Part shown: positions 2,043 to 35,542 of the stretch, one piece after another | Numbering within the stretch: position 1 is the first letter of the stretch | Layout: each line of letters begins with the position of its first letter | From: Patescibacteria group bacterium | GTDB lineage: Bacteria > Patescibacteriota > Patescibacteriia > UBA9934 > CAMTUG01 | Direction of reading: 5' to 3' | NCBI GenBank assembly: GCA_038065815.1 | Contig: JBBTQF010000012.1 | Coordinates: 1,663-65,662 of the forward strand | DNA length: 64,000 nucleotides | Translations under genes and position numbers: made by a program | The notes under the pieces: generated by a model | Database searches by the model: none | What the model saw: the letters and a program-made list of their open reading frames with translations, nothing else | Told to the model about the DNA's origin: nothing

Positions 2043-2050
2043 AAGGTAAA

Positions 2051-2764: not shown

Positions 2765-2770
2765 AAGTTG

Positions 2771-3202
2771 CTACTCTTCTGGTTGATACACTCCTCCAGT
2801 ATTCACAATCAGCGATAATTCCTGCAACCGACTGCTTGTCACCGGTTCTCTTGTCGCAACAACCGCGACAGGAGCAACAGCATCGCCTTTCAAGTATGGC
2901 TTAAGCTCCGCGTCTGTAAGCTTTTTGTCCCACACCCGAAGTAATGGTTTGCGAAAAGTCTGAATCATATTTAACACGAAAAAGTGAAACGGCTGGCCGT
3001 TGATACGAATGAAGGCAAATGTGACGCCAATCAGAAAAATTGGCACACCGAACAAGAGAAACTTCCAAAAGGTGAGCAATGAGTACAGAAGCGTATCCGT
3101 CAATCCCATCGCCAGCACAATAAGAAATTGTCGCACCGAAAGTGGTCCGAGAATCTTGTCCTCGATATCAATAAATTGCGGAACCGTGAATTGCTGTACC
3201 AT
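2771..3202 (-). CDS. Small two-TM membrane protein, VirB3/PrgI-like, located upstream of VirB4.
   Basis: The 143 aa contain two hydrophobic helices (LIVLAMGLTDTLLYSLL and LLFGVPIFLIGVTFAFI). A 6-nt gap separates it from the VirB4-N ORF, the canonical VirB3-VirB4 arrangement. Confidence 0.45.
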   Translation of the reverse strand: MVQQFTVPQFIDIEDKILGPLSVRQFLIVLAMGLTDTLLYSLLTFWKFLLFGVPIFLIGVTFAFIRINGQPFHFFVLNMIQTFRKPLLRVWDKKLTDAELKPYLKGDAVAPVAVVATREPVTSSRLQELSLIVNTGGVYQPEE

Positions 3203-3225
3203 GAAGAAAATGTCTATCTATTATA

Positions 3226-4668: not shown

Positions 4669-4674
4669 AATAAA

Positions 4675-7518
4675 CTAACGACCAAAGCGCTTCTTGGCGT
4701 GTTCCGCGGCGGCGATTTTTCGAATCATGCTTGCGTCATCTTTGAGCGCTTGATAGTTATTCTTAAGAGCAAGAGTCACTTTATCAAGCGTATTGATGAG
4801 ATTAATTTGCTCCGAAGATTGCGATGGTGCGCGACGGATCTTATCTGCGATTCCTGTAATCTTGGTATCGGAGATCGCCTGTGCCACCGCCTTGCCAATC
4901 GCTCCGGCGGCGTCAGCACCGTCTATCTTGAGAATCATTTCCGGATTCTCCGAAATCATACTCTTAAAGCCAGCCTCGGCTGTCTCATCTGTAAAACGCC
5001 CTGCAGTTGAATCAAAATTAATCGCACGCGGAATGGCTGAACCCATCACCAGACGAGTCTTCATTGTTTCAGCAATTTGACGTGCGACTTGCTTTTCCAT
5101 GGCTTGTTTTTGCAAACCATATTCTGTCGATGTTTCTTTTCCGTCTTCATGTTTCGTCGTGGGTTGTTCAAAAGTCCGACCTTCTTCATCCACAAGATTA
5201 TTATCAACAAAAGTTTTAATACTTTTTCTTGCAAGATCATCGCGCTTATCCAATCTCTCATTCACCGCGCTGGTTAGCGCTGGGTTAGTCGTGGCAAGCG
5301 TGGTAAAACCTTTATTTACTGACGGATCAGTAAATTTGCTGAAAAACTCCTTGTTGCCAAGCATTTCAGGCGCAACGATATTTGATTTCAAATCATTAGC
5401 GCTCAACTTGCTAATTGATTCCGTAAGCCGATCAGTTGCTTCTGCAAGTCGCTGTTGTGCCTGCTCATGATCTAAACCAAGTCCAGCCTCTCCTCCTTCA
5501 ACACGAGTTCTAATTTTAGCTTCCTGCTGTTGAGCTGTTACAACAGATTTATGAGCACTCTGCATATCAGTCTGTCTCTTTTTTATATCTGCTTTTTCAT
5601 TCTCATTCCACAGATCAGACGTCTTCTGACCAGCCTTTCCCGCAAGGATATACTCTTCTCCAGTCCTACCTTCACGAGTCTTCTCATTACGCAGTGACTT
5701 GCGCACTCGAGGATCTGAAAGAGCTTTCTCATCTTCACCCCATGCCCGCATCTTACCTGGCGAAGCCAAAATCGTACGGACACGGTTATCAATCTCTGTC
5801 TGCTGGCGTCCTTCATACTGCTTTTCCGTTTCTCCGGGTTTTCTCTCTTTGGCATAGACAGCCGCCAGAGAAGGCGCCGCGTCAACCGCCCGACTAAATT
5901 TATCTTTGGTGGCATCGTCAAAATCGCCAACCATACCGCTATCGCGAATCTTTCCAGTAAGGTCTGTAAGTTCTTCTGGTTTAAGGGCAACACGCTTTTT
6001 CTCATCCATGACAAGTTTCAACTGAGCCGCCTGTATACGATTCTTTTCCCCATACGGCGTAAGTTTATTGATTTTAGTCCCAGCCAACCCCTTCAACTCT
6101 TCAGTCCCAAGTCCGGTCAAGCCCTTCAGAGCTTCCGCGCGGGACTCCTCTTTCTTGGCCTCCACAGCAGAAACCTGACTTAATCCAAGATCACGCACAG
6201 CACGCCCAGCGATGCCTAAACCGGGAACTTTCGCGACACCAGCCCCAACCTTACCCATAAAGCTACCAACCCCTGCTCGTGCTTTCAGAAAAGGAGCCAT
6301 ACCATAAGCTCGCGCTCCAGCTCGTCCAACTGCTAGACCGGCGCCTGCCGGAACGCCGATACCGATACGGGCAATCTGTCTGGAGAGACCTGGGATGCCG
6401 GCGATACCAGAAGTCATAAACTTGCCTGCACTACCACCGATCGAGCTTGCTGTCTGTTGGGAGATTTCGATTCCTGCAAAAATAAGTGCCAACGAGATTA
6501 TCAGACCCGTGAAGTGTGGCAGATCAAAAATTTTTGTAATAATGCCAACAGACTCACTCTCGCCAGCAGTGCCAAGATCAGTTTCAAAACCCTGCGTCTC
6601 TGCAAGCCCACCTGCTCCGGCGGTAGCCAACGCCAGCCACAAGAAAAAAGTCATGATCGGTCCGATGCTCACAGTGCTAGTAAAACGCTTCCACCAGTCC
6701 GAGTAGTATCCTTCTGCCGGCCCAATGACTCCCTTGGCGCCGCCAAGAAAAAATGCCAGAGGCGACAAAATGATGAGTATCCACAACATGACAATACGGA
6801 AAGCAAAAAGCATGGCCATGGTAAGCACGGTACCGAGTACGATAAACGAAATAACAAGACTCAAAAATGCCGCCCCAAGCAAATCCCACACACCATAACC
6901 GTTCTCTTTTTCAATTCCACGCATCGCCGCGTCCTCGCTAAACGTATACATTTTGTCGAGCCCGAACATGGAGATAAAATTTCCTCCAGCAATATCTTTG
7001 ATTGCGTTCACAAACGTAATCATGAACACTTGTCCGAAATCAATAATGAGACCGGCAATAGTGCGTGAAAAGTTGATGACGACGGCCATCAAAAGCAAAC
7101 GCGGAATTTGTTTCTTCCAATCTGCCCGACCAACGCCGAAAATCGTCTGAAAGGCGATGATGAGCAGTATGATGATAAAAAACATGTTCACAACGTCACG
7201 CACGATTGCCCAACCAAGTCCGACGATCTGCGAGGTTGTGAACTTGTCATAGCGCAAAATCGGTATGATGAGCACCTCAATCACTGCCACCACGACTTTG
7301 ACAACTTGTTGAGAAATCCACGCAAGAATTTGAGCCAGCGTAATGCCAACGCTTTCTGCGATGCTTACATCTGTTTTCTCACCGCCATCTTGGGCAAAGA
7401 CTCCTTGTACAAACAGCACGATAGCAAAAACGCAAAACATTCCGACGATCTGATATTTATGATCTCGGAGCCAATGCGTTGCAAAACGCAGACGATGTTG
7501 CAGCGTGTGCATATGCAC
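4675..7518 (-). CDS. Polytopic membrane protein of about 947 aa with a long charged C-terminal extension. It is VirB6/TrbL-like.
   Basis: An N-terminal signal/TM is followed by about eight hydrophobic helices spanning aa 30-400 and then roughly 550 aa of A/K/E/G-rich hydrophilic sequence. It sits between the M23 hydrolase and the coiled-coil gene with a 6-nt spacing to the latter. Confidence 0.4.
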   Translation of the reverse strand: MHMHTLQHRLRFATHWLRDHKYQIVGMFCVFAIVLFVQGVFAQDGGEKTDVSIAESVGITLAQILAWISQQVVKVVVAVIEVLIIPILRYDKFTTSQIVGLGWAIVRDVVNMFFIIILLIIAFQTIFGVGRADWKKQIPRLLLMAVVINFSRTIAGLIIDFGQVFMITFVNAIKDIAGGNFISMFGLDKMYTFSEDAAMRGIEKENGYGVWDLLGAAFLSLVISFIVLGTVLTMAMLFAFRIVMLWILIILSPLAFFLGGAKGVIGPAEGYYSDWWKRFTSTVSIGPIMTFFLWLALATAGAGGLAETQGFETDLGTAGESESVGIITKIFDLPHFTGLIISLALIFAGIEISQQTASSIGGSAGKFMTSGIAGIPGLSRQIARIGIGVPAGAGLAVGRAGARAYGMAPFLKARAGVGSFMGKVGAGVAKVPGLGIAGRAVRDLGLSQVSAVEAKKEESRAEALKGLTGLGTEELKGLAGTKINKLTPYGEKNRIQAAQLKLVMDEKKRVALKPEELTDLTGKIRDSGMVGDFDDATKDKFSRAVDAAPSLAAVYAKERKPGETEKQYEGRQQTEIDNRVRTILASPGKMRAWGEDEKALSDPRVRKSLRNEKTREGRTGEEYILAGKAGQKTSDLWNENEKADIKKRQTDMQSAHKSVVTAQQQEAKIRTRVEGGEAGLGLDHEQAQQRLAEATDRLTESISKLSANDLKSNIVAPEMLGNKEFFSKFTDPSVNKGFTTLATTNPALTSAVNERLDKRDDLARKSIKTFVDNNLVDEEGRTFEQPTTKHEDGKETSTEYGLQKQAMEKQVARQIAETMKTRLVMGSAIPRAINFDSTAGRFTDETAEAGFKSMISENPEMILKIDGADAAGAIGKAVAQAISDTKITGIADKIRRAPSQSSEQINLINTLDKVTLALKNNYQALKDDASMIRKIAAAEHAKKRFGR

Positions 7519-7613
7519 GCAGATTGTAACACGATTTGAGACGTTTGAACGGGCAGAGGTGGGGATAGAAACTTATAAGAGCGGGGCGGTCAGTGTGACC
7601 GCCCCGCGAAACG

Positions 7614-9380
7614 TTAAGGCACCTCGAAATATGCATCGCCACCGATGGAGCACGGATCGGTCGCCCAAACCGACGCGCTCCACGGGTCGGTATCAACCGT
7701 CACGGAAACACCGTCCACCTCAACCGTGCCACGCATGTCGATCGAGAGGCAATCGTTGTTGTATGCGGCCCAGTAGACGTCACCGCTAGAGCTCGTCTGG
7801 TACCACGCGTTGAGTTTGATCTCCTCGCCACTTTCCGCCTCTACCGACACACACATCGCGGTATCGCCGTTGTCGGCATCGTCCGCAACAGGCGAACCCC
7901 AGTAAGTGAAGGTGTTGCCGTCAAGGTAGAGGTTGCCGTCGTACATGGTGACGCCCGGCAAGTAGCAGACCTCCACGGTCGTGTCCTCGTAGGTCACAAC
8001 CTCGTCCGTCTCACTAGTATCGAGCTCTTCTTCCTCGTCGTCGGGCTCGTCCGACTCCTCCTCATCAGCACTGCCGGTATCGAATTCCTCTTCCTCGTTC
8101 TCCGCTTCTCCACCGGTATCCTCTTTCTCGTTCGGGAGTTCCTCGTCGTCATACGTATCGCCGGTATCGAGCTCGTCGGTGTCGTTGCGCTCATCGTCGT
8201 CATCGTTCTCCGCTCCGCCAATGCCAGCGACGCTACCGCCACAAGTCTCGATCATCTCCGCGTCAATGCAACCGTAGTCCGACGAACAACTACCCATCGG
8301 CAGTCCCGTGTCCGCGATCGTCCCGTCGCCAACCGTGACGATGTAGCGCGAACTGAACCCGAGCCGCAGGAAGATATCCCACGTCTCAATCGGCAGGGCC
8401 ATGCCATCGCTCACGACGTACAGGTCGGAACGGCTCGCCTCTTTCACGATGTCGCCATCGCGGAAGTACGCATTGTCCACGCGCCAGCTGACGTCACTTG
8501 TCTCGTCAATCGCCTCGCCGACGTCCATGCAGTCAAGCTCGTCAGGGGAGATGAGCACGACCTCGCTGAAATCGTAGCCGAGGTCCCAGAATACGTCCTC
8601 GCTCTCGATCCAACGGCGCTCACCGTCCTCCACGAGGTAGACGTTGTTGTCGTCCGGGGTCTTCACGAGCGTACCGTTCGGATGCCAGTTCGTGACTGGC
8701 AAAAGCGACCTGTAGGTTTCACCAGCGCCATCAAGCCCGCAGACGAAATCCTCACTTTCGAGCACGAGCTCGGACTCACCAGTACTCACGTTGTCCACGA
8801 AGTAGCCGACCTCGATCGACTCTCCGTATTCGGCCATGAGGCGTCCGTCGCCCTCGTGCAGACCGATATGCACATGGTCACCACTGCACTTGCCAGTACA
8901 ACCCTCGTAACCGAGAATCTGACCCGCCGCGACCTCAAACCCATCGCTCACGAAGATGTCGGACATGTGCGCGAGAACGACGTAGGTGCCGTCACCGAGC
9001 ACGATGTTGACGTGGTAGCCGAAGTTGAGGCTCGCTGACTCCATGTGGACGTAGGCCGTTCCGCCAATCGGCGCGTACACGATGTCGGACTCACCGTTTG
9101 GGGTGTCGAAGTCCAGATCAAGCTCCGTGCTGTCGCCAGCGTGCGAGTAGGTGTCGAAAGGCCCCTGCGTGCAGAGCGTCTTGTAACCGTCATGAAACGG
9201 CAGGTCAATGACGACTCCATCATAGCCACCCTGATCTGTGGACGAGCCGGGGTTTTCGAGCGACTCGATGAACTCTCTGTAGAGTGGATCCATCATCAAA
9301 CATCCGACCATGCCTGATGCGAAGATGAAGGTGATGATGGGAACTGCGTAGAGACGCAATTGGAACTCTTTGTGACTCAC
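7614..9380 (-). CDS. Membrane-anchored M23 (LytM) family peptidoglycan peptidase with a poly-acidic linker and a C-terminal domain. It is the cell-wall hydrolase of the T4SS-like cluster and a VirB1 analogue.
   Basis: The M23 motifs HxxxD (HAGDSTELDLD) and HxH (GDHVHIGLHEG) are present. An N-terminal signal-anchor is present. An acidic run of about 80 aa reads DDDDERNDTDELDTGDTYDDEELPNEKED...EEEEFDTGSADEEESDEPDDEEEELD. Confidence 0.7.
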   Translation of the reverse strand: MSHKEFQLRLYAVPIITFIFASGMVGCLMMDPLYREFIESLENPGSSTDQGGYDGVVIDLPFHDGYKTLCTQGPFDTYSHAGDSTELDLDFDTPNGESDIVYAPIGGTAYVHMESASLNFGYHVNIVLGDGTYVVLAHMSDIFVSDGFEVAAGQILGYEGCTGKCSGDHVHIGLHEGDGRLMAEYGESIEVGYFVDNVSTGESELVLESEDFVCGLDGAGETYRSLLPVTNWHPNGTLVKTPDDNNVYLVEDGERRWIESEDVFWDLGYDFSEVVLISPDELDCMDVGEAIDETSDVSWRVDNAYFRDGDIVKEASRSDLYVVSDGMALPIETWDIFLRLGFSSRYIVTVGDGTIADTGLPMGSCSSDYGCIDAEMIETCGGSVAGIGGAENDDDDERNDTDELDTGDTYDDEELPNEKEDTGGEAENEEEEFDTGSADEEESDEPDDEEEELDTSETDEVVTYEDTTVEVCYLPGVTMYDGNLYLDGNTFTYWGSPVADDADNGDTAMCVSVEAESGEEIKLNAWYQTSSSGDVYWAAYNNDCLSIDMRGTVEVDGVSVTVDTDPWSASVWATDPCSIGGDAYFEVP

Positions 9381-23970: not shown

Positions 23971-24068
23971 ATAAACTGCTATTGACGAAGGGGGATTGAT
24001 TTATTTGATGAAATATGGTACGTTCAAATCGAGGCAATCAACCAATGCTGGCCTCCACAGCATCAATC

Positions 24069-24087
24069 TTCCGGAAACCTTCCGGAA
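24069..24087 (+). promoter_or_regulatory. Tandem self-complementary octamers TTCCGGAA-acc-TTCCGGAA immediately upstream of the Shine-Dalgarno (AGAGGTGA) of the lipoprotein gene. It is an operator-like site.
   Basis: Seen directly at 24069-24076 and 24080-24087. Confidence 0.35.
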
Positions 24088-24098
24088 AGAGGTGAGTC

Positions 24099-24740
24099 AT
24101 GAGCAACCTGCTCCTCGCCCTGCTGATCTTCGGATGCCAGGGCCCCATCAACGGCTCGGAGAACCCGGGCGATACCAACCCGTCCGACGCGGACACCGAC
24201 GCCGACGCGGATGCGGACGAGACGGAAGTCACGTTCACGTCCACGGTCACCTACGCGCAGCGCGTCGACGAAGAGATTGTCGTCAGCGTAGTGGAGACCG
24301 ACGGAATCGGCTTCAACGTGCTCGATGGCGACGACACGGACGACGATGTCCTGTGGAACGCACAGACGGTCTACACCGACATGATCGTGCTCGACGAATC
24401 CTGGGCGCGGGTCGACCACACGGACAGCTACGGCGTGCACTGGGTGAGCGATCTGGTGGACGTCAACAGCGCCGCGGTGCAGCTCAAGCCCTGCGTGGAC
24501 CTCACCGGCACGTGGAACTGCTACAACCCCGAACGGCCCGAAGGCGCCGACGACGAAGAGTTCGAGATGAGCTCCTGCACCGCGAACACGACGATGGACG
24601 AAGACGTGAAGACGGACGGATACCACTTCACTTCGGAAGACAACGACGGGTTCATGTCGCAGGACGGCAAGATGCTCGACCTCAACGCATACGGCGACAC
24701 AGGCAACCTGCTCGGCCAGATGATCTGCGACAAGCAGTAG
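24099..24740 (+). CDS. Acidic lipoprotein (lipobox LIFGC) in a GC-rich patch.
   Basis: MSNLLLALLIFGCQG carries the signal and lipobox, a strong Shine-Dalgarno is present, and a DADTDADADADETE acidic run follows. The overlapping Arg-rich ORFs are rejected. Confidence 0.5.
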   Translation: MSNLLLALLIFGCQGPINGSENPGDTNPSDADTDADADADETEVTFTSTVTYAQRVDEEIVVSVVETDGIGFNVLDGDDTDDDVLWNAQTVYTDMIVLDESWARVDHTDSYGVHWVSDLVDVNSAAVQLKPCVDLTGTWNCYNPERPEGADDEEFEMSSCTANTTMDEDVKTDGYHFTSEDNDGFMSQDGKMLDLNAYGDTGNLLGQMICDKQ

Positions 24741-24871
24741 TCAGGCCTACCGAGCGCACCTTCAACGACATCTCAATCGCGCTTCACCCACCGCTCCAAG
24801 GTTCACCTTGGAGCGGTTTCGCGTCTAAAGACATAGGCGGGGCATGGTAACCCCGCCTATCTGCTTTCGAT

Positions 24872-27800
24872 CTACGGCTCCACTCGGATTACCCCTTCGT
24901 AATATACCCACGGATCGTCCTCGGCAAACGAATCAAAATCCATATTACCGTCTGGTCGTTCAAGTTCACATTCATTATCCGCACTACTCGTATCCATATC
25001 TTCCATAGATCCATAGCAACTATCCCCATTACCAGGATTGGTTTCCGTATCCGGACACTCCCCCGTACACCACCCCCAATTATCACGCACGTGAATGCGA
25101 GGGCGGTAGACGCAGGCGGTGCCGTCAGCACATGGGGTTGAGTCTGGCAGACCATCACCGTCTTCATCTAGATTGTCGCAAGTCTCAAGTGTTACTACGA
25201 AACTCTCCGTGCAGGTATAGACATGGGAATAATTGTAGTAAGCGGATGTACAGGCGTCTGCCTCTTCGCCCCAATTCTCCGGACTCTCACCACAAAACTC
25301 TTCATTGTATTCATCCAACCCTCGAGCATTCTTGTAATAGTTGTTACTGCTTGTACTGCCAAACTGATCCGATCCGTCATCTTCATCTTGCCAGTCAATG
25401 ATCATACGGCGAATCGGCATCTGGTTGGCGTTAGCCTCCACGTAGAACTTGATGTCAGCTAGGAACTGCCCACTTGTTCCTGTGAGATTCTCATCATCAT
25501 AGCCATTGATAGAGAAAGAGTCGTTGGAGCCTTCTTGGCAGAGGTCGTCTACACAAGTGGAGCCGATGGAACGGACGATGGGGGCGGATGGGGTCGTCTC
25601 ATCTTGGTAGCTATCGCCAGTTGCTGTTACGTCAGAATAATGATCGGCCGGCGACAAATCTGCAGAACCGCTAGAACTGGTGTTAGAGCTTGATATCTCA
25701 ACTCCATCTCCATAACCCCCCGTTCCATCTCCACCATCCTTATCCCATGAGAAAAGCGTCAAAGTTTTGGCAAAGATTTGGCTTATGCCAGTCAAAAAGT
25801 CATTTAAATTTATTACTGCACTATCATACATATTATATGCACGAGCCTCCGGGTCGCTTGAGTCACCCAGCCCATCTTCGTAATAAGGTGCAAAACCATA
25901 ATATGAAGAAGAGTCGCATGTCCCATCAGCCTCTGTAAGGTAACTTGCTGTGCCAGACTCACTCACCACACAGGACAATATGCGAGCTGGAGCGGGATCA
26001 TTCCAGTCTGTCTCATTCAGCTCATCTGGAGACCATGCCGCGCCGAACGGAGCGCGGGCTGTTTTATTTGTATACTCGAATCTATCGTCCACAGCGCTGA
26101 TCTGATATGTCTCATACAACAAACGATTCGTCCACGCACGATTCCCTTCCGTAGACGCAACATTTACAAGCGTGGTACAGGCTGGATATACCCCTTGATC
26201 AAAATACAAACCCGACCAATATTTTGGACACGTAGTCCATGACCACGTTGGGCAATTGTTAAAATAAGAATCGAAATTTACATCAAAAATTGCATCGGTT
26301 CCCCCGGCTTCCATAGCCGCATAATCAAATCCCATGATCTTGCAATCCGCATAATACTCAAGCAGATTAGCAAATTCATCCGTACCGGACATCATCTTGT
26401 AAACACGATTTCCATCGGAACTTAATGGGCTGAAATACCCAGCTTCATAATCAACATCACTCTTTTTTAACGCATAAACACCCTCACCGCCGTCAATATC
26501 GTCCAAGATTCCCATGTCTTCCAGCGCCTGCGGATCATAACACGGCTCACCAAAATAATCACTCTCTTTATCCGTGTGAAACGGAACATATCCGCGTGTG
26601 GCGGTTTCATTATATAAATCCCTAACGTCATCATCATCTTCTCCACCGAGCTGTTCCGGATCTCCCGGGACACAAATATACGGATGATCGTTATAATCTG
26701 ACGTTGCTCCTCTGTCATTTTGACATTCGGCAAAATAGTTGTCACCATCTTCCGCGCTGTCCGTATCACCGGTATCGGGATCGGCATCGGTATAGATACA
26801 GCGCCCGAGAACGGCGTAATCACCTTTCGGGCAGACCGCGTTACCGTCACCGCGCAAAAGATCTTTCCAAGAGAAAACTCTATCGCCGTCGTCGTTCTCC
26901 TCTAGAGACCAGCAATCATGCGATGATTCATGCTCCGCACATGCAATACCACTCGTGCCACTCGTTTCCTCAATACTAAAATCTGAAACCGGGACATCAA
27001 CATAATAATCACTTTCTCCGCAATAGTACGTATTCGTCAGCGGATACCCCGCCTCCTCATACTTACCATAGATGTCGCTTGCGCCTGAAAGTTGATCAAG
27101 AGGCAACCAAGTTAGGCAGGCATCACTGTTAGAGTCCCCATTGACTTGCGTGCGTGCGTCGCGTTCAAGACAGTACCCTTGCCAACCCACAAGAGCCTGT
27201 TGGCCAGTAATAAATTGGCATGATCCTCCCGCTTCTTCACAGGTGGTATCCATGACATTGTAAATCGTGTTGTCAACCGCGCTGTCTATGCAAACAGCGC
27301 CGTCATACGTTCCGCCACTGCACACGCGACTGGCCGCATTTTCCGCGCCTTCGTCATAATAACGCGTAAGCGAACCATAGCTCACTTTGTCATACGAACA
27401 ATCACACTCCTCGCCTGCGACGCACAATGTTACGCGCTCAAACGTGGACTTTCGCTCGTAGGCTTTTGAGGAGTTTACCGTAGGGTCTTCCGAATCAATA
27501 CCAATCGCAGAATCACTGCTCTTCGTATTCGTATCCGTACGTTCCTTCGGGCCCAGAGCAGAATTCGCCCACGTCTCCACCACGCTATTTCCAAACGGCG
27601 CGTTAGCCTCCGGCCACCCACGGCAGTCGAGCTCTTCTCCTTCTGCCGGCTCAAATGTCTCGGCTTCACCGCTACCATCATCATCCTTTGGATCGAGCAA
27701 GCACTTGTCGTTATAACAGGCACCTGTCTGCGTTGAGGCTGACTGAACGCACGAAGCCGTGCCAATGCCAGAACACTTTAGAGTGTCGCCTTCACACGCT

Positions 27801-30800
27801 GTGCTCGTCAGATTTTGACAGACCCCGTCAATGCATGACGTGGCGCTTGTCTGGCCTGAACAATCTACGTCTGTCACGCACTTAACACTGCTTGATGGCT
27901 CATACGCACAATAACCTGTCGCGCAGAACTCACTACTGTCACACTCATCATCACTGCCACACGCGGAACCCGTGTCGCTACAAAAACCAATAGAGCAGGA
28001 CTCGCCGTCCTCCGTGCCGTCACACGCGCCAGCATAGTACACAAGACGATAATCTTCACCTGCAGATTGACATGAATAAGCGGCTCCAATATCTCCACAC
28101 TCCTCCTCTCCTTCCGTTGTGTCGCAACTCAAATAACTTCCGTCCTCATACGGTTCGTATATCTCATCAGTAGCTCCGTTTACGCACCATTTCGACGGAT
28201 TGATGTTGACTTGCGAAAGAAACTGCGCCGGAATCTGGTTTGGAATTGAGTAGCCGGCGTACTCATAACCGTACCAACCAACATCACGCGATGAATAAAG
28301 GTCAGCGGTCAGAATGTCCGGCGTCTTATCCTGCGACCAGCTTGAGCAGAAACTCGAGTCCGAAAAAGCCGAATACTCGTTACATGCGTCCACGCTGTCA
28401 CAGCTAATTTCGTATGAATTCGTGGACGTGTCCCAAACCGTTCGTGTCGAGTCGCATGCAAGCCATTCGGCGCAAGCGCGATCAAGATTTACCTTCTGCA
28501 CCATGTTCGTGTCATCCTCAAGCGCCGTCGCGTCGGACTCGCATGAACCAGAAACCAAATCACCGCCATCGCTCTCAACATCAGGACAATCCGCATCAAT
28601 CAGACACGAACCGGTGTACGTTGTTCCAGTATTATTATCGTATGGGTGCAGTAGCGCCGTATCATAACCGCAACGTTGCGTACACAAATCCACTTCAGTT
28701 CCGTCCGCCAGCACAACCTCGCCGTCATCTGGACAGGAGAGCGGATCAACCAAATCATAACTATCCGCACCAGCGTCAAACTTTGGCGCGTGCACACTGC
28801 GAATGTAGCTTGCGCTGGCATTATATGTGAGCTCGCCTTGAACGATGTCGTTAAAGAGCACACAGCCACGCTTCTGACTCACCATGCCGTTGCACTGTTT
28901 AGAAGTCGAGAGATTGGAATCATCGAGGAGCTCATCATTGATGAAGAAATACGACTCGCCTTCGTCCTGCCCGTAGAGTTCATCGCCGGTGTCGGCTGGG
29001 TCAATAAACTCGGTACAGAAATCATACTGTGCAGAGCATGTCCCACCCCAGCCATCGTAAGCGCTGTCGCCATTCCGCCAAATACTGCTTGCTGTACCGC
29101 CGGAAAGATAAGTGCCTGTATCAATTTCACACTCATCAGTTTCCTCATCAGTTGAACTTGTGCAATCCGAGTCCGTCTCACAGTCGGCACCTGACACGGT
29201 GCAAGTGCCGGTCCCATAACAGAACTCTGACGTGCCCGTACGGAACCAGCCGGAATAAGACGTGCCGTTCAAGCTCACGCTCGTTTTATACTCACAAGTT
29301 TTGTCGTTTGGATTTTTGAAAAAATACGTTGAGCCGTCAGTCGTATCCCACGCCTCGCAAAACAACGCTTCGGCCTGACAGAGTTGATCATCATACTCAT
29401 CAGGCTGGTTGAGCAGATAAGTTGACTCCCACGACGCCACAACTGTCTGATCCATACTGAACGTCGGCGCACCAGTCTCCACACAACCCATAACCGAACT
29501 CTCACATTCAAACTCGCTATTCGCGACAAAGTATACTTTCTCATCTGCATTCACCACTTGCGTCTCCGGACCAAAAACGATGCTCATATCGGCGTCGTCT
29601 GGCGCAAGCGGATTACCGTCTTCATCACGAGGCTCCCCGCCCTCCCAATCAAATAAACAATCCTTTGAGCCGGCCGTAATCGTACAAACGGTCTCCCCTT
29701 CAATCTCACAAACCACTGACGAGCTCGCCTGATCTGGTACGCCATCGCCGTCATCGTCCGCGTTGTCACAACGCACGTTATAGGAGACACCATAAGCCGA
29801 CTCCGAAGCTTGCGTATCAAAGAACCCCGCGCACCCCACCAACTCTTCCGAGCAGAGTCTGGTGAACGATTTCAAATCAGCAATATCTCCATTGGAGTCC
29901 GTGTATTCCTGACAGCCAAGATAATACAGCGGAGATTCCGCGCCATCTGCGGTCTCGTCGCACGTAGACGGCGTCACCCATGAGTCCCTAATGACTGTAA
30001 TATTCTCCTCGGTCTGGCGCAGAGTGATATTGTCAATGTAGAAATCATCACCGGACGCGTCGCCAGCAAAGGCAAGCACGGCCGTCTCGTCAAAATCCGT
30101 ATCCGTGGTGTCGAGCGGGCCGACTGTGAACTCTTCCCAGTTGGTTGAGAGATCAACACTCTCAAACGCCTGCACTGTCCCACTGCCACCGTCGTAAACA
30201 AACTTTGGTGTAATGCTGGTGCTGTTGTCCGATGCTTTTGCCCAAAAGTTGAGCACATACACCTTATCTTCGGCGAGCGCATCAGCGAGCGTTCCACAAT
30301 CATCCTCGTCCTTTTCAACCGTGCACTCAAACCCAAGTGTGCTGTCCGAGGCTTCACAGCCGTCCTCTGTTACACAAGTTGAACCGTAATCAATGTAAGC
30401 AGTGAACAACGCACCGCCAGCAATGGTCGTCACAATGTGAATCGAACGGCCATCTGTTGCAACAGACTCGTTGCTCACTTCGGCCGTGGCTCCGTCCAAA
30501 TCGTACTCATCAATATCTTCGTCTTCGACGTCATCATCGTAGACAATTGAAGAGTTACGACCGGCACCACCAGTGTATTCACGACAACCGTTTTGCGAAC
30601 TCGGACAGGAATCAGACTCATCCGTATATCCGTAAAAACGGCAATTGCCAGTTGTGGAGTCGAAGTACCCGCGTGCCGATTCACAACTTATTTCGCGCTC
30701 GCTTGAGTCTACGCCAGAAATCTCGGTTTTACGATAAGCTATACAAGAATCAGTAACGCTCACAGTATCGTCAAAACGACGATAAGAGATGTCTCCACCT

Positions 30801-33800
30801 TCATCGTAGAACTCACGGCAGTCTGGCTCATCAAAAATGTCATCATGCTCGTCGCAGGCAGAATCCGTATCCGCCGAGCCGTCGCTGTCCGCGTCCACGT
30901 CAGAGCAATATATGCCATCACTCTTCGTTTCCCAACTCGTACACGGCGCACCATCCAAATCACTCTTGAGCAAATTCCATGACTGCAGTTTGAAGCCTTC
31001 CAAATCCGATCCTTCCCACGTATAGTAAACCGCTTCATTCGTAGTCTGACTGCCTGTCACGCAGGCGCGCAAATAAGTGTAGTACTCCTGACTTTCATCC
31101 GACAGATTAGTAAACTCATCACAACCAACGTACTGCTCACTGCACGAGATGGCAGTATCCGAAATAAAATACACCGGAAATTCGCCGTCAGGTTCGTAAA
31201 GCGTCGGCTCCTGCTTGTAAGTGTCATAGCCCACGCACTCGGACGGACATTCATCAAGATCGCCTGTGATTCCAGGCACCGATGGATTGCCGTTCACTGG
31301 AGTATAAAGCAGACAACCAGCATCTTGCGCCGTACACATCTGCGAATAACTATCGCACTCCTCCGGATCGTCAGCAGAACCTTCACAACCAAGATACGAT
31401 GGCGGGAGTTTATAATAAACAAGCTGTAAATCATCAATAGCACTTCCGTAACCCTCACGGAAGTTGTCAACATCCTCATCTGCTTCAAGTTGTACCGCAT
31501 CCACGAGCAAGTCACCTCCAAAATCAAGGGAGGCTACGCGCACGCCAATCGTAGGATCGTCAAGTGTTGGCGAGGTGAATGTACAGGTGAAGCGTTCATA
31601 CTCATCAGAGTCAGGCGTGACCGACATCTGCAAAGATTCTGGTTTAGCATTCCCATCAAGACTTACAAGCTCGCAATTATCACTGTCATAACTTGTGCCG
31701 ATCAGATTAACTTCTTCAGAACCATCGCTTGAGTCTGTCACCAGATAGACAGTGAGCTCATTACTGTCACTTGAGCTCGGTTGGGCCGCATAAAACGAAA
31801 GCGTATAAAACATCGAGGCTTGGATCGAGATGTTGCGCTGGTAGATAAAGTTGCCAGACCCGGGATTCACGGCCGAGTCGCCAGAAATCGAATAGTCGCC
31901 ACTGATATCGTAGCCCGGCGTGCCGGTTGAAAGCCAGAAATCCGGTTGATCATCGCTGTTATCATCATCCTCAAAACTTGGATTGATGATGAGGTTAAGC
32001 TCGGTGTCATCATCGTCAATGACAAAACGACGGCAACCAGCATCCGAGCTGTCGCAATCTTCTACTTCACTGTTGAAATAGACACGCTCCGCGTATGTAA
32101 ACTCTGCGTCGTCATCTGTCGGAACATCAGTGATCGTCGGCCAATCAAACACGCCATCACTATCCTCTTCTTTGGTCGTTTCATACCACAGACAGCCGGC
32201 GTTATTACTATCGCACACTGACTCATCAACGGTATTAAACAGCAAATCCGAATCATCGCCATCTTCGCTAGTAAAACTTAAACACGTTCCATACTGCTCC
32301 GGACAATCTTGCCCACGGAACTGATATACGTTCTTCTCTTGCGTGCAATAACCATACCCTCCAACACATGCCCCACTCGCGTCTTCCTGAATACAGCTTG
32401 GCGCGTCAACACATTCGTCTTGACGATCTGCTCCGCTAATGGAAACGAGCTGGCCGGCCACTTGAGCCTCACATTGTGTTGAAGGATATTTCAGCACCCA
32501 GTTTGGATCAATGAGATGGCAATAAGGATATTCGGTATCGCGTTCGCCGTCCGCATTGCAGTTATCAAACGCAGAGACAACGTCCTGCAGTGTATCAGGG
32601 TCGCTACTTTGGAGATCTGCGGCTATCTCCCAACCTATCGGAATGATACGCGCCTTACGCAGTTTCACGAGGTTGCTGTAACAGTAGCCGTAAGAGTAAC
32701 AATCGCGGTCCAGATTGCGCGAATCACTGCTCGAAATGAGTGGCCGGTCTCCGTTGATGTAGCCTTCTTCAATCGCTTCCTGCACAGTGAAAGGACTGCC
32801 TGCGTCAGCGCTTCCGACAGCCGTTGCAAAACTGTCGTCCATCGTACAGTTATTCAAGCTGATAGCGTTGGTGGTTGGACACAAAATAAACTCACTCACG
32901 GCGTTATACGTATCAAGGCTGATAGGTGTTGTCGTATAAATCGTTTTGTAAAAATCTTCCGCGCCTTCAACTCCACCGCGTGTACCAACCGAGCCGACAT
33001 CAAATGAATCGGACACGCTGTCCACTGTCACGTCGTATAGTCCAGTAAACACATTATCGAGAAATGTACTCACGAATGTGTTGGCAAAGACACTTAAGGC
33101 CGATAAGCCTAAATTCTGCCAAATTTCAGGATTGTTGACGAGTAGAGCCCAATAATCTTTGGCATTTTCCTTCGGATCAAGATAAAGCTGTTTTTTCCCA
33201 GACTCAAGAGCAATGACTGTCGCAGGGGTTTTAATATTTCCAGAAATAAAATCCGCAACATCCTTATATCCCTGCTTTGCTAAAAGCTCGGCAAGCTTAA
33301 CTTTTTCCTTTTTATTAACATTCTCAAACACTTGACTGTAGATGGTCATTGAGGCAGTCAATTCTGTCTCGCGCGGATTAATCGCATCAGCAAAATATCC
33401 AAGAACGTATTTAGTCGGATCCTCGTCAAACGCATTATATTCATTCACGATCCCCGTATACGCATTTGTCCAGTTGGTCAAGGCCTTCTGAAAATCACAC
33501 CTCGGTTTCGGCTTAAATACTTGACTCAAACCGAGCTGAAGGTTGATTCTACCAAGCGCGGAAGGAGCGCACAGATCAAAATGCAATCCAGCAATATTAG
33601 CCCCCTCGCTCAATGCGGCAATGGCCTCCCCAACGATGTCGTACACAATTGAGTTGCTAAAATCCTCGAGCGAGCGCAACTCTAAAAGCGGTTCCCCTCC
33701 GGCTGCCCCAGTGGCAAGACGCACGGCAAATTCATACGAAACGCGGTTAAGAGAATACTGCAAAAGATTCCAGATGATCATGCCAAAAGCGACCTGAAAC

Positions 33801-33979
33801 GGTTTTTTGTATGCCTCTACCTCTACCTCTTTAATTACCCCCGGTATGTCCTCCACAATAATCGTCGTTATCCCCGGCGCCACCGCAAATACCTTCATTG
33901 GTGTCCCAACAAAAAGAAAAGAAAAGGACACGAGCAGTCCCAAAAAAACAAGTTTAATTCGAATCTTGTGAGGCAACAT
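24872..33979 (-). CDS. Giant (about 3035-3050 aa) secreted Cys-, Asp-, Ser/Thr-, Gly-rich surface protein with an N-terminal signal and a presumed extracellular multi-domain body.
   Basis: It is a single uninterrupted 9.1-kb ORF. The signal/TM is MLPHKIRIKLVFLGLLVSFSFLFVG; the listed ORF starts 15 codons earlier at 34024. The body has pervasive Cys with Asp-rich DxDxDG-like calcium-binding-like motifs, for example DGDGVPD and DEDGDGLPD. GC content is genome-like. Confidence 0.7.
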   Translation of the reverse strand: MLPHKIRIKLVFLGLLVSFSFLFVGTPMKVFAVAPGITTIIVEDIPGVIKEVEVEAYKKPFQVAFGMIIWNLLQYSLNRVSYEFAVRLATGAAGGEPLLELRSLEDFSNSIVYDIVGEAIAALSEGANIAGLHFDLCAPSALGRINLQLGLSQVFKPKPRCDFQKALTNWTNAYTGIVNEYNAFDEDPTKYVLGYFADAINPRETELTASMTIYSQVFENVNKKEKVKLAELLAKQGYKDVADFISGNIKTPATVIALESGKKQLYLDPKENAKDYWALLVNNPEIWQNLGLSALSVFANTFVSTFLDNVFTGLYDVTVDSVSDSFDVGSVGTRGGVEGAEDFYKTIYTTTPISLDTYNAVSEFILCPTTNAISLNNCTMDDSFATAVGSADAGSPFTVQEAIEEGYINGDRPLISSSDSRNLDRDCYSYGYCYSNLVKLRKARIIPIGWEIAADLQSSDPDTLQDVVSAFDNCNADGERDTEYPYCHLIDPNWVLKYPSTQCEAQVAGQLVSISGADRQDECVDAPSCIQEDASGACVGGYGYCTQEKNVYQFRGQDCPEQYGTCLSFTSEDGDDSDLLFNTVDESVCDSNNAGCLWYETTKEEDSDGVFDWPTITDVPTDDDAEFTYAERVYFNSEVEDCDSSDAGCRRFVIDDDDTELNLIINPSFEDDDNSDDQPDFWLSTGTPGYDISGDYSISGDSAVNPGSGNFIYQRNISIQASMFYTLSFYAAQPSSSDSNELTVYLVTDSSDGSEEVNLIGTSYDSDNCELVSLDGNAKPESLQMSVTPDSDEYERFTCTFTSPTLDDPTIGVRVASLDFGGDLLVDAVQLEADEDVDNFREGYGSAIDDLQLVYYKLPPSYLGCEGSADDPEECDSYSQMCTAQDAGCLLYTPVNGNPSVPGITGDLDECPSECVGYDTYKQEPTLYEPDGEFPVYFISDTAISCSEQYVGCDEFTNLSDESQEYYTYLRACVTGSQTTNEAVYYTWEGSDLEGFKLQSWNLLKSDLDGAPCTSWETKSDGIYCSDVDADSDGSADTDSACDEHDDIFDEPDCREFYDEGGDISYRRFDDTVSVTDSCIAYRKTEISGVDSSEREISCESARGYFDSTTGNCRFYGYTDESDSCPSSQNGCREYTGGAGRNSSIVYDDDVEDEDIDEYDLDGATAEVSNESVATDGRSIHIVTTIAGGALFTAYIDYGSTCVTEDGCEASDSTLGFECTVEKDEDDCGTLADALAEDKVYVLNFWAKASDNSTSITPKFVYDGGSGTVQAFESVDLSTNWEEFTVGPLDTTDTDFDETAVLAFAGDASGDDFYIDNITLRQTEENITVIRDSWVTPSTCDETADGAESPLYYLGCQEYTDSNGDIADLKSFTRLCSEELVGCAGFFDTQASESAYGVSYNVRCDNADDDGDGVPDQASSSVVCEIEGETVCTITAGSKDCLFDWEGGEPRDEDGNPLAPDDADMSIVFGPETQVVNADEKVYFVANSEFECESSVMGCVETGAPTFSMDQTVVASWESTYLLNQPDEYDDQLCQAEALFCEAWDTTDGSTYFFKNPNDKTCEYKTSVSLNGTSYSGWFRTGTSEFCYGTGTCTVSGADCETDSDCTSSTDEETDECEIDTGTYLSGGTASSIWRNGDSAYDGWGGTCSAQYDFCTEFIDPADTGDELYGQDEGESYFFINDELLDDSNLSTSKQCNGMVSQKRGCVLFNDIVQGELTYNASASYIRSVHAPKFDAGADSYDLVDPLSCPDDGEVVLADGTEVDLCTQRCGYDTALLHPYDNNTGTTYTGSCLIDADCPDVESDGGDLVSGSCESDATALEDDTNMVQKVNLDRACAEWLACDSTRTVWDTSTNSYEISCDSVDACNEYSAFSDSSFCSSWSQDKTPDILTADLYSSRDVGWYGYEYAGYSIPNQIPAQFLSQVNINPSKWCVNGATDEIYEPYEDGSYLSCDTTEGEEECGDIGAAYSCQSAGEDYRLVYYAGACDGTEDGESCSIGFCSDTGSACGSDDECDSSEFCATGYCAYEPSSSVKCVTDVDCSGQTSATSCIDGVCQNLTSTACEGDTLKCSGIGTASCVQSASTQTGACYNDKCLLDPKDDDGSGEAETFEPAEGEELDCRGWPEANAPFGNSVVETWANSALGPKERTDTNTKSSDSAIGIDSEDPTVNSSKAYERKSTFERVTLCVAGEECDCSYDKVSYGSLTRYYDEGAENAASRVCSGGTYDGAVCIDSAVDNTIYNVMDTTCEEAGGSCQFITGQQALVGWQGYCLERDARTQVNGDSNSDACLTWLPLDQLSGASDIYGKYEEAGYPLTNTYYCGESDYYVDVPVSDFSIEETSGTSGIACAEHESSHDCWSLEENDDGDRVFSWKDLLRGDGNAVCPKGDYAVLGRCIYTDADPDTGDTDSAEDGDNYFAECQNDRGATSDYNDHPYICVPGDPEQLGGEDDDDVRDLYNETATRGYVPFHTDKESDYFGEPCYDPQALEDMGILDDIDGGEGVYALKKSDVDYEAGYFSPLSSDGNRVYKMMSGTDEFANLLEYYADCKIMGFDYAAMEAGGTDAIFDVNFDSYFNNCPTWSWTTCPKYWSGLYFDQGVYPACTTLVNVASTEGNRAWTNRLLYETYQISAVDDRFEYTNKTARAPFGAAWSPDELNETDWNDPAPARILSCVVSESGTASYLTEADGTCDSSSYYGFAPYYEDGLGDSSDPEARAYNMYDSAVINLNDFLTGISQIFAKTLTLFSWDKDGGDGTGGYGDGVEISSSNTSSSGSADLSPADHYSDVTATGDSYQDETTPSAPIVRSIGSTCVDDLCQEGSNDSFSINGYDDENLTGTSGQFLADIKFYVEANANQMPIRRMIIDWQDEDDGSDQFGSTSSNNYYKNARGLDEYNEEFCGESPENWGEEADACTSAYYNYSHVYTCTESFVVTLETCDNLDEDGDGLPDSTPCADGTACVYRPRIHVRDNWGWCTGECPDTETNPGNGDSCYGSMEDMDTSSADNECELERPDGNMDFDSFAEDDPWVYYEGVIRVEP

Positions 33980-34607
33980 ACTCGGCAAGGACTTGGTTAT
34001 ACAATTCAATAAGCTCATCATCACTATAGTTCGCCAACATATCAGACGTCACCCCATTTTGTGAGAGCAATTCGCGCAATGACGCTGGATCCATGTTCTC
34101 AATAAGCGCTTGAACGCTAGCTGGGTCGCTTCCGGACTCGATGAGTTGCTGAAGAAAGGCGGAGTTGTCCTCTGGCGCTTCAATCGAGGAGGCAACTTCT
34201 TCACCGATATCAACGGAGATCTCGTTGGTTCTGGAACATTCACTGTCAATCGGACAGTTTGGATCGTTTCCAGAATTGAGCTCCTGCGCATCGTCATAAC
34301 CGTCAGAGTCAGAGTCAGAGAGATACGGCGAGGTGCCGTAGACTTCCTGCTCATCATAATCGTTGAGTCCATCACTGTCCGTATCGCGCACCTTCATTGC
34401 ATTCTTCTCTGCCTCTTCTTGCTGTACAACAAACGATTCGTCATCTGTCAGCGTCAGCTGGAAAGGCAGTGATAAATTTTTTCCAATGTAGCGCGTGCCT
34501 AGTGTGATGCCTCCGATGCCCGCAATGATAAGCAACAACAAAGCCGCCCTTTCTGGACCAGAAAATGGCGAGCGAGGTTCACTCGGAATAACCGGCTGAT
34601 TTTGCAT
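33954..34607 (-). CDS. Membrane-anchored protein with thrombospondin-type-3-like Asp-rich calcium-binding repeats.
   Basis: There is an N-terminal TM (AALLLLIIAGIGGITLG). DTDSDGLNDYDE and SDSDSDGYDDAQE fit DxDxDGxxDxxD. Its 3' end overlaps the giant gene start by about 26-70 nt. Confidence 0.5.
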   Translation of the reverse strand: MQNQPVIPSEPRSPFSGPERAALLLLIIAGIGGITLGTRYIGKNLSLPFQLTLTDDESFVVQQEEAEKNAMKVRDTDSDGLNDYDEQEVYGTSPYLSDSDSDGYDDAQELNSGNDPNCPIDSECSRTNEISVDIGEEVASSIEAPEDNSAFLQQLIESGSDPASVQALIENMDPASLRELLSQNGVTSDMLANYSDDELIELYNQVLAEYVASQDSN

Positions 34608-34684: not shown

Positions 34685-35542
34685 TCATATGGAGAGTCTG
34701 CTATCTACGAGTCGCTCCCAAAGCTCTATCCATTGATCAACAGAAAGCTCTTGCGCACGAGCTTTGTCGTTCAATCCGATATCACAAAGAGTCATTTTCA
34801 CACGCTCTGTACCATATTTTTTCCCCAAATTGCCTTGCAACTGCTTGCGTCGCGATACAAAGCCGAGCTTTGCAAGCTGTATCACTTGCTCTACATTGTT
34901 CCTATTTGTCACAGATCTCTTATCCATTCTTAATGACCTATCCAACTGCACCACGGTTGAATCCACTTTTGGCATTGGATGAAACGCGCCCGGAAAAACG
35001 TTACATACGCGCTTCACGTCCGCATACAACTGACAAGCCACGGAAAGCACACTCATATCACCAGGTTTGGCGAGGATTCTGTCCGCGACTTCGCGCTGAA
35101 CCATCACGACCATGCGAGTCGGAGAATGTTCGTCCGCGAGAAACTTTTCCAGCACGGCAGAGGCGATGTTGTAGGGAAGATTTGAGACGAGTTTATAATT
35201 TGGTAATTTGATAATTGGGTAATTGAGCAACTTGGCCGTAGAAAATTTCAAAACATCACCAAAAAGGAGATGAGCGCGATTGCCAAATTTTTCTTTGAGA
35301 TCAGGGATTAAATCCCTGTCGGCTTCAATAGCAATGACGCTGGCTCCAGCATCAACAAGAGCTTGGGTGAGGATGCCGTGACCCGGGCCGATCTCGAGAA
35401 TTGTCTCTCGTGGAGTGATTTCAGCCGCCGTGATAATTTTTTTTATCACGCTTTTATCATGCAAAAAATGCTGACCAAAAGATTTTTTTGCAAACATACG
35501 CTCTATATTTTTATTGATCCTCGACGCAACACCTCCACACAA
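34685..35542 (-). CDS. rsmA: 16S rRNA (adenine1518/1519-N6)-dimethyltransferase RsmA/KsgA.
   Basis: FGQHFLHD...ILEIGPGHGILTQAL is a classic KsgA N-terminus and SAM motif. The start is likely the internal MFAKKSFGQHF at about 35497. Confidence 0.8.
   Translation of the reverse strand: MCGGVASRINKNIERMFAKKSFGQHFLHDKSVIKKIITAAEITPRETILEIGPGHGILTQALVDAGASVIAIEADRDLIPDLKEKFGNRAHLLFGDVLKFSTAKLLNYPIIKLPNYKLVSNLPYNIASAVLEKFLADEHSPTRMVVMVQREVADRILAKPGDMSVLSVACQLYADVKRVCNVFPGAFHPMPKVDSTVVQLDRSLRMDKRSVTNRNNVEQVIQLAKLGFVSRRKQLQGNLGKKYGTERVKMTLCDIGLNDKARAQELSVDQWIELWERLVDSRLSI

Follow-up and report, generated by a model that had tools for sequence, protein, structure and literature searches.

The closest described counterparts of the proteins reported here are found in other very small genomes. 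In the Peribacteria, which belong to the candidate phyla radiation (CPR), large cysteine-rich proteins with signal peptides were suggested to function in attachment (Anantharaman et al., 2016, PMC4736985). Similar proteins were proposed for the same role in the DPANN episymbiont Ca. Huberiarchaeum, and one DPANN example is predicted to bind calcium and to be anchored in the membrane (Probst et al., 2018, PMC6792436). The proteins of both lineages were also proposed to give rigidity. We analyzed a stretch of 64,000 nucleotides (nt) from a Patescibacteria group bacterium (assembly GCA_038065815.1, contig JBBTQF010000012.1; hereafter, the window) that encodes a giant protein of about 3000 amino acids (aa) and, directly upstream, a short membrane protein with thrombospondin type 3 (TSP3) repeats, which we call the partner. 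Our results suggest that partner and giant form a two-gene surface module fixed in one large branch of the Patescibacteria (CPR).

The giant resembles the Peribacteria and Ca. Huberiarchaeum proteins in being large, Cys-rich, equipped with a signal peptide, devoid of functional annotation, and encoded in the very small genome of a presumably symbiotic organism. It falls into the descriptive class of CPR and DPANN proteins (PMC4736985) that are longer than about 1000 aa and have a signal peptide, elevated Cys and no annotation, a class that is not defined by homology. Compared by description, they also differ. The Peribacteria and Huberiarchaeum proteins are multi-copy, smaller, more Cys-rich, and variable between strains, whereas the giant family is single-copy and collinear over ~3000 aa, with 4.4% Cys, a fixed partner, and a fixed position. 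Multi-copy clusters were not found for the giant: there was one gene per locus in 80 genomes, with no paralogue in these top 80 loci and one copy in the window. The related Cys-rich class is already known; what sets the giant family apart is its signature domain, a candidate for a new fold, and a two-gene organization not described before.

A protein search with the giant retrieved 121 homologues, nearly all of 2500-3400 aa, which align end to end at 25-55% identity. None of them is named, and every database source labels the family "hypothetical protein". The labelled homologues come from Candidatus Uhrbacteria, Falkowbacteria, and Magasanikbacteria or carry the label "Patescibacteria/Parcubacteria group"; we take the named lineages to belong to the class ABY1 of the Genome Taxonomy Database (GTDB). 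At least 580 stretches encoding members of the family were found in a genome scan with one genome per species. The initial annotation had presented the locus as a curiosity, a view that does not hold: the giant belongs to a clade-wide collinear family situated in a GroEL-RF1-epimerase-Sua5-KsgA-partner-giant neighbourhood. No description of the family was found in the literature on cysteine-rich, giant, or thrombospondin proteins of Uhrbacteria and Patescibacteria. The "gigantic proteins" of the Lipocone paper belong to Omnitrophota and are unrelated to it.

The gene pair, in the gene order typical of CPR, is also present in many third-party records of metagenome-assembled genomes (MAGs) with the title "uncultured Gammaproteobacteria bacterium" (loci L009, L020, L025, L027, L030, and L033 included) and in one with the title "Candidatus Kapaibacterium sp."; such titles appear to be placeholders or taxonomic mislabels.

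The giant gene is an uninterrupted open reading frame (ORF) on the minus strand (24872..34024), with 3050 codons counted from the first GTG (34024); residue numbers throughout follow this 3050-codon ORF. The public gene model P0001 (100% identical, 3035 aa, "MAG Patescibacteria group bacterium") begins at ATG 33979. This ATG is probably the start of the gene, and it gives a canonical Sec-type signal peptide, the N-terminus then being MLPHKIRIK-LVFLGLLVSFSFLFVG-TPMKVFA, followed after the predicted cleavage point by VAPG. The protein contains 133 Cys (4.4%), 353 Asp (11.6%), 10% Ser, 7.6% Thr, and 8.2% Gly, and has a mass of 330 kDa, an isoelectric point (pI) of 4.05, and a net charge of -433. 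These values bear out the initial annotation of a single 9.1-kb ORF for a signal-peptide-bearing protein rich in Cys, Asp, Ser/Thr, and Gly. The guanine-cytosine (GC) content of the gene is 0.492, and an identical protein is present in two contigs/sources.

The signal peptide was called by a motif-level analysis of n-, h-, and c-region features. Two or more Lys/Arg occur within the first 25 residues in 110/117 giant homologues, and the pattern P-x(1-5)-[AVST]-x-A was found at aa 16-75 in 88/117 homologues as against 31/117 control windows; from this enrichment of the c-region motif we infer that the signal peptide is cleaved. With these features of a type I signal peptide, the giant is predicted to be exported via Sec. 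The N-terminal hydrophobic segment is the only one in the protein; there is no C-terminal transmembrane (TM) segment, and LPXTG was found in 0/117 family members.

Members of the family have a median length of 3019 aa and a median of 130 Cys, and the Cys count is even in 73% of them (117 members). When 114 full-length homologues were aligned, 76/132 Cys of the giant were kept in at least 80% and 106/132 in at least 50% of the sequences, and C, G, P, Y, L, D, F, and W were the residues most frequently conserved. In the giant itself, C-x5-C occurs 13 times and C-x6-C 16 times, as against 5.8 ± 2.2 expected, whereas CxxC is absent and CxC depleted. One Cys pair, DC...C[HK]LIDP, is lost jointly with its loop in several homologues. 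The conservation of the Cys, the enrichment of C-x5/6-C, the even counts, and the joint loss of a pair all argue for disulfides and not metal sites, so that the Cys would form a conserved skeleton of ~65 predicted disulfides, mostly C-x5-6-C hairpins. A metal-cluster reading was rejected, as CxxC and CxC are depleted, the counts are mostly even, and pairs are lost jointly.

The regions of the giant are listed in Table 1. The N-terminal region (aa 65-365) shows moderate conservation, and an AlphaFold2 model of this tile contains the helices H30-70, 84-109, 143-164, 187-214, and 264-292 (tile numbering) at a predicted local distance difference test (pLDDT) score of just 40-60. It is followed by the family signature domain, with the motifs YCYSNLVKLRKARIIPIGWE.AA and CHLIDPNWVLKYP. 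Its invariant residues include N451, R456, G464, and E466, and D506 is nearly invariant. Modelled alone with 61 sequences, the domain reached a pLDDT of 89 and a predicted template modelling score (pTM) of 0.80, and no structural neighbour of this model was found in PDB; the predicted structure is therefore a candidate for a new fold. The signature-domain profile gave 1183 matches among 1.84 billion representative proteins, 1115 of them at E<=1e-10. Nearly all of the 150 matches listed start at residue ~280-440 of a protein of mostly ~3000 aa, and the domain marks the giant family because no other architecture was seen among these listed matches. Shorter proteins among the matches look like contig fragments. 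A scan of IMG/VR revealed no viral relatives of the signature domain, and a phage origin of the family was rejected on this ground.

Two jelly-roll domains resemble carbohydrate-binding modules (CBMs) of the CBM4/9/16 type. Pfam CBM_4_9 matches aa 677-774 in the first just above threshold (29.3 bits vs. a gathering score of 25.9). The tile of the second reaches 13.8 bits in the window protein, and CBM_4_9 matches 27/38 homologues there (best E 8e-7); against PDB, the profile of the second domain found 1gui, a CBM4, at E 4.2e-6. The jelly-roll fold of the giant can be superposed on solved CBMs. Its top structural neighbours also include receptor-binding domains of Cry, Vip, and binary toxins, and these toxin matches align to the jelly roll alone; a match to a phage "GTA spike fibre" on the jelly roll is sub-threshold. 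The modules differ from those of CBM4, CBM9, CBM16, and CBM22 in that they are not attached to a recognizable glycoside hydrolase. Alignment of aa ~704-973 with aa ~1167-1481 by hhalign (probability 97.5%, E 6e-12) indicates that the unit of CBM and Cys hairpins derives from a single ancient internal duplication. This is the one internal duplication found, and direct or tandem DNA repeats are absent from the ORF; the initial annotation had recommended internal-repeat detection.

The motif [YF][YF]-x8-10-C-x5-6-G-C-x2-[YFW] occurs ~12 times in aa 544-2040, the Cys-hairpin-rich core, where a model of aa 935-1150 is beta-rich (pLDDT ~90). The N-terminal two thirds of the giant are conserved, whereas aa 2340-2800 are hypervariable. 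In the 114-sequence alignment, the mean top-residue frequency of aa 2340-2800 is 0.09-0.34 (0.09-0.20 in 8/9 blocks of 50 residues), as against 0.6-0.7 for aa 400-600, and the gap fraction is 0.18-0.67. The C-terminal region has the motifs FYA.AD.NQMPIR..VDWGDG, YKNH.G, and CVF.PRV.V.DNWGWC. It gave no Pfam match in 38 members and no PDB match, and hhalign found no relation of the C-terminal third to the other tiles of the giant. A PKD-like reading of VDWGDG/WxxGDG was made by eye alone; there was no Pfam PKD match in 38 homologues, and we do not claim it. Overall, the giant is a fixed mosaic of unique sequence and not a repeat array.

Pfam, NCBIfam, and PDB sequence and profile searches with the whole protein and with tiles found nothing beyond CBM_4_9 and the sub-threshold phage match. 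Catalytic families were likewise absent from the Pfam, NCBIfam, and PDB profile matches of all tiles and of 38-63 homologues. The initial annotation had reported no recognizable enzymatic motif, which stands; that there is no recognizable domain at all is nearly right, CBM_4_9 at aa 677-774 being the exception. It had also seen scattered DxDxDG motifs and deduced a calcium-stabilized protein. Three Dx[DN]x[DN]G motifs are indeed present, as against 0.72 expected from composition, a number reached in 17/500 shuffles, and each of the motifs is kept in only 6-12/114 homologues. Calcium binding through these motifs was rejected as a family feature, as they are near chance and not conserved, and the view of the giant as calcium-stabilized is thus not supported.

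Size, acidity, and extracellular destination are shared with the giants of the RTX/Bap/SiiE and RHS/YD types; clear homology to RTX or RHS had been named in the initial annotation as a possible objection. No such signature appeared in the Pfam and NCBIfam searches: the giant has no Pfam HemolysinCabind match at E<=1 and 0 GG.G.D motifs, and no Pfam/NCBIfam match to RHS/YD and 0 YDxxG[RNQ] motifs. Unlike those proteins, it has no tandem repeats, GGxGxD, YD repeats, immunoglobulin-like array, or type I secretion system (T1SS) signal, and its N-terminal Sec signal peptide contrasts with the uncleaved C-terminal T1SS signal of RTX proteins. The conserved neighbourhood of the giant contains no T1SS genes. 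S-layer homology (SLH) and cell wall-binding (CWB) anchoring domains were not found in the giant by Pfam.

The partner is predicted to cross the membrane once. It has two repeats of the TSP3 type, putatively Ca-binding, together with a conserved DPNCPxxxxC pair, an acidic linker, and a helical region at the C-terminus. The TSP3-like motifs of the window copy are DTDSDGLNDYDE and SDSDSDGYDDAQE. The stop codon of the partner lies at 33954-33956, so that the giant gene overlaps it by 26 nt if it starts at ATG 33979 or by 71 nt if it starts at GTG 34024. The earlier observation that the start of the giant overlaps the 3' end of a membrane protein with TSP3-like repeats was thus correct, including the TM helix and both motifs. 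By tblastn, a partner orthologue was found directly upstream of the giant gene in 80/85 loci (median gap ~50 nt); the gap between the reading frames is often 1-4 nt, or there is an overlap, and the two genes are probably translationally coupled. The N-terminal TM helix is present in nearly all of 78 extracted partners, and two DxDxD[GN]xx[DN] motifs in most of them. The two TSP3 motifs are strongly conserved, both being kept in about 60/78 loci, and the conserved core reads DTDxDGLxDYDE..Y.TSPYL.DSDSDG..D..E..SG.DPNCP.G..C. The window partner reaches 16.5 bits against Pfam TSP3_bac (PF18884), for which the gathering score is 25; among the orthologues, many have a precomputed match to PF18884 and are named as TSP3 repeat-containing. 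Binding of Ca2+ is credible for the partner only.

The same type of repeat is found in Myxococcus CglD, an adhesion lipoprotein of gliding motility, and in MtsD, which acts in cell-cell cohesion; in both, the repeats bind Ca2+ in envelope proteins of adhesion complexes. The likeness is limited to the TSP3 repeat type and to the partner. With 217 aa, two repeats, and a TM anchor, and without the VWA and further domains of CglD and MtsD, the partner is not a member of these families: the NCBIfam CglD/MtsD-type match of its loops is weak (E about 1e-3), and its scores are far under the family cut-offs.

Taken together, these features suggest that the pair may form a surface fibre that is tethered by the partner, braced by disulfides, and binds glycans in cell-cell or host contact, a tentative reading whose chance we place slightly below even. 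According to this reading, the partner would insert one N-terminal helix into the membrane and display its two TSP3 Ca2+ loops and a small disulfide outside. The giant, its translation coupled to that of the partner, would be exported by Sec and lose its signal peptide. Since the giant itself lacks an anchor in wall or membrane, the partner could serve as its tether and hold it at the cell surface, plausibly by the Ca2+ loops or the C-terminal helices. There the giant would extend as a rigid extracellular fibre whose body is braced by the ~65 disulfides, and its CBM modules and variable C-terminal part would bind glycans on the envelope of another cell, such as a host or a partner bacterium. 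Such binding would bring about cell-cell contact, possibly in the service of the neighbouring type IV secretion system (T4SS). The signal-peptide features, the Cys skeleton, the CBM folds, the partner linkage, the polarity of conservation, and the precedent of the Peribacteria and DPANN proteins support this reading; conserved N-terminal two thirds followed by a hypervariable aa 2340-2800 fit a cell-proximal base with a distal, diversifying part. The initial annotation had suggested an exported surface protein of a small-genome bacterium with a role in attachment. The protein is, by its motifs, exported and rich in Cys and Asp, and surface attachment appears the most plausible role, to which the two CBM-type lectin folds add support.

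Patescibacteria account for a large share of bacterial diversity and presumably live attached to other cells; the contact mechanisms of lineages outside Saccharibacteria have hardly been elucidated. For a genome of ~1 Mb, it is a high cost to keep a 9-kb gene, its domain order, and ~65 predicted disulfides across hundreds of species, and an important function is therefore implied. The family thus offers a widely conserved and concrete target, with its signature domain, two lectin-like modules, and partner anchor.

Several points weigh against a contact fibre. The tethering was deduced from the linkage of the two genes. About 2600 of the 3050 residues are without a known match, so that any function could hide there. 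CBM folds occur also in enzymes, toxins, and phage fibres. Many organisms of the family live in anoxic groundwater, which bears on the formation of disulfides. The family is also unusually constant for an adhesin, being collinear, of similar length throughout (median 3019 aa), without a paralogue in the top 80 loci, and flanked by housekeeping genes. Such constancy would be expected at least equally of a structural or machine component, and the clade-wide collinear pattern in a housekeeping neighbourhood speaks more for a core envelope structure than for a fast-evolving adhesin.

These last points would favour a core envelope scaffold, that is, an S-layer-like coat, a wall-spanning strut, or a surface organizer, whose CBMs would bind the cell's own wall polysaccharide. 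The pair is collinear, apparently single-copy, and vertically inherited in a fixed housekeeping neighbourhood of at least 580 species, the length and the Cys skeleton of the giant are tightly conserved, its acidic pI is typical of S-layer proteins, and a sugar epimerase and a Wzy-type polymerase are encoded in the same conserved gene run. We still regard a scaffold as unlikely. Neither SLH nor any other known anchoring domain of S-layer proteins was found in the giant, and S-layer proteins are as a rule much smaller and poor in Cys or free of it. The hypervariable aa 2340-2800 are easier to explain by an external, changing ligand; moreover, the giant family seems limited to one branch of the Patescibacteria, whereas S-layers are wider in the phylum. 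A hydrolytic or toxic function was considered as well, in which the N-terminal, signature, or C-terminal region would be polysaccharide-degrading, wall-lytic, or membrane-damaging and the CBMs would direct this activity to its substrate or prey. CBM4/9/16/22 modules usually accompany glycoside hydrolases, Cry, Vip, and binary-toxin domains are among the top structural neighbours, the signature domain has the invariant polar residues N451, R456, and E466 and the nearly invariant D506, and the N-terminal region is long and helical. Against this, the searches of all tiles and of 38-63 homologues revealed no catalytic family, and since the signature domain is without a structural neighbour, nothing supports a hydrolase or pore-former fold. 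The toxin matches are confined to the jelly roll, and 330 kDa of disulfide-braced modules would be an unusual format for an enzyme. We hold a secreted enzyme or toxin to be very improbable. The chance that the gene is decaying or an artefact (chimerism in the assembly, repeat collapse, or a pseudogene read through by chance) is negligible. Nothing was found in support of this beyond the fact that the organism is known from metagenome assemblies alone, and the identical protein occurs in two contigs/sources. Collapse of repeats, which the initial annotation had named as a possible objection, and chimerism are excluded because the giant ORF has no direct or tandem DNA repeats and more than 100 collinear full-length homologues with conserved Cys columns come from independent assemblies.

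The giant might alternatively serve the neighbouring monoderm-type T4SS as a dedicated adhesin for contact or as an extracellular adaptor, with a PrgB-like role in mating-pair or host contact for DNA or protein transfer. A published survey of T4SS in Patescibacteria (PMC12102498), which notes that monoderm T4SS rely on surface adhesins, reports none of the PrgB-like kind. Like the PrgB-type adhesins, the giant is a large surface protein encoded near a monoderm-type T4SS (with PrgI and a CD1110-family VirB4 here), and it could supply the cell-cell contact that pilus-less T4SS need, as those adhesins do. The proximity to T4SS genes noted in the initial annotation proved to be conserved: among the 39 related loci with at least 8 kb of downstream sequence, T4SS homologues lie on the same strand within 10 kb downstream of the giant in 32, distant family members included. 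The arrangement is not operonic, however, with 1-3 unrelated, often opposite-strand genes in between in relatives and ~15 kb in the window, and the cluster is not nearby in 7/39 loci. Gene order is generally conserved in these genomes, so that shared ancestry could explain the proximity. T4SS are reported in many Patescibacteria classes (PMC12102498), while the signature domain is found in ~1100 clusters with one architecture; most Patescibacteria T4SS must work without the giant, because they are far more widespread than its family. There is no sequence or domain similarity to PrgB, and the giant has no LPXTG or PrgB-type domain, lies outside the T4SS operon, is two to three times larger, and is disulfide-rich. 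We therefore hold a dedicated T4SS adhesin to be quite unlikely. A link of the giant to the adjacent T4SS, if real, would supply the adhesin that is missing from the literature on Patescibacteria T4SS. Similarly doubtful is a bolder form of the contact-fibre reading, in which the pair would be a lineage-defining surface organelle: a disulfide-braced fibre on a new-fold domain that bridges to the host and is the missing adhesin or adaptor of the monoderm-type T4SS of Patescibacteria. Such an organelle, if real, would be the structure by which episymbionts dock and exchange DNA or proteins.

Table 1. Position of the giant gene, its regions, the partner gene, and neighbouring features in the window
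Feature	Position	Strand	Description
Giant gene	24872..33979	-	3035 aa from ATG 33979; stop codon 24872-24874; longest ORF reaches GTG 34024
Predicted signal peptide	33884..33979	-	aa 16-47; basic n-region, 16-residue hydrophobic core, c-region ..P..VFA followed by V
N-terminal region	32930..33832	-	aa 65-365, ~300 aa, Cys-poor, predicted long helices
Family signature domain	32480..32902	-	aa 375-515, 140 aa, small alpha/beta domain; most conserved motifs
Cys-hairpin-rich core	27905..32395	-	aa ~544-2040; Cys positions conserved
First CBM4/9/16-like jelly-roll domain	31430..32002	-	aa ~675-865
Second CBM4/9-like jelly-roll domain	30020..30532	-	aa ~1165-1335
Hypervariable indel-rich acidic region	25625..27007	-	aa ~2340-2800; 114-sequence alignment
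C-terminal Cys-rich beta region	24875..25624	-	aa ~2800-3050, ~250 aa, conserved again
Partner gene	33954..34607	-	217-aa single-pass membrane protein; TM helix ~aa 20-40
KsgA (rRNA adenine dimethylase)	34685..35542	-	conserved upstream neighbour
Acidic lipobox-like ORF	24099..24740	+	starts with LLIFGC, lipobox-like; convergent to giant; GC 0.625
IS200-like Y1 transposase	23045-23902		within 9381-24098
Monoderm-type T4SS cluster	120..9380	-	conserved neighbour of giant
M23 peptidase	7614-9380	-	T4SS cluster
947-aa unannotated protein	4675-7518	-	T4SS cluster
480-aa unannotated protein	3226-4668	-	T4SS cluster
PrgI/VirB3-like	2771-3202	-	T4SS cluster
VirB4 (CD1110 family), two adjacent ORFs	2051-2764 and 120-2042	-	350.7 bits vs. 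cut-off 325

A conserved GroEL-RF1-epimerase-Sua5-KsgA run precedes the partner-giant pair on the same strand, with KsgA at its promoter-distal end. KsgA was found upstream on the same strand in 73/85 loci, at a median distance of 774 nt, and is commonly located near virB4 across Patescibacteria (PMC12102498). In the window, positions 34685-45167 (minus strand) encode NusA, YidC, a 314-aa unannotated protein, a Wzy_C O-antigen-ligase-like protein, GroEL, RF1, an NAD-dependent sugar epimerase, Sua5/YrdC, and KsgA. The order of this housekeeping and envelope run is conserved in most related loci. A promoter and terminator scan gave counts at or under the shuffled expectation and was uninformative.

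On the downstream side, the T4SS cluster lies ~15.5 kb from the giant gene in the window and 2.8 kb from it in L008, the closest relative with flanks; the median distance from giant to M23 in related loci is 4.2 kb. VirB4 is split into a 237-aa N-terminal TraC-like piece and, 8 nt later, a 640-aa P-loop piece. The split may be natural in the lineage and not a frameshift, because the relative L005 also has a separate TraC-like ORF (226 aa).

The ~14.7-kb segment between giant and T4SS (9381-24098) has a patchy GC content of 0.43-0.63 per kb and looks like an inserted island. Besides the transposase, it carries genes for an MFS transporter, a methyltransferase, SPASM proteins, an inositol monophosphatase, a HAD hydrolase, a PfkB kinase, a Glycos_transf_3 protein, and BtpA. 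IS200-like genes occur near the giant in 12 other loci, downstream of it in 9 and upstream in 3, a hint that insertions recur at this spot. The Glycos_transf_3 ORF (11262-12707, minus strand, 481 aa) overlaps almost fully with an ORF of 458 aa on the plus strand (11370-12746). The overlap (11262-12746) lies in the stretch with the highest GC of the window (0.60-0.63), and the plus-strand ORF is probably a by-product of the high GC.

Next to the giant lies the acidic lipoprotein-like ORF, which has a DADTDADADAD tract encoded over a 12-bp imperfect repeat (24184-24219) and no Pfam or NCBIfam match. The initial annotation was right about its existence and its differing GC (0.625 vs. 0.492) and placed it in the locus with the giant. 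A relative was found in only 1/85 loci (L008, at the same convergent position), and the ORF was rejected as part of the module.

A second Cys-rich protein of the exported type is encoded at 57220-59406 (plus strand, 728 aa), with four MopE-type "putative metal-binding" motifs and seven FG-GAP (integrin-alpha-like) repeats. The Cys-rich surface proteins of Peribacteria carry the same type of annotation (PMC4736985).

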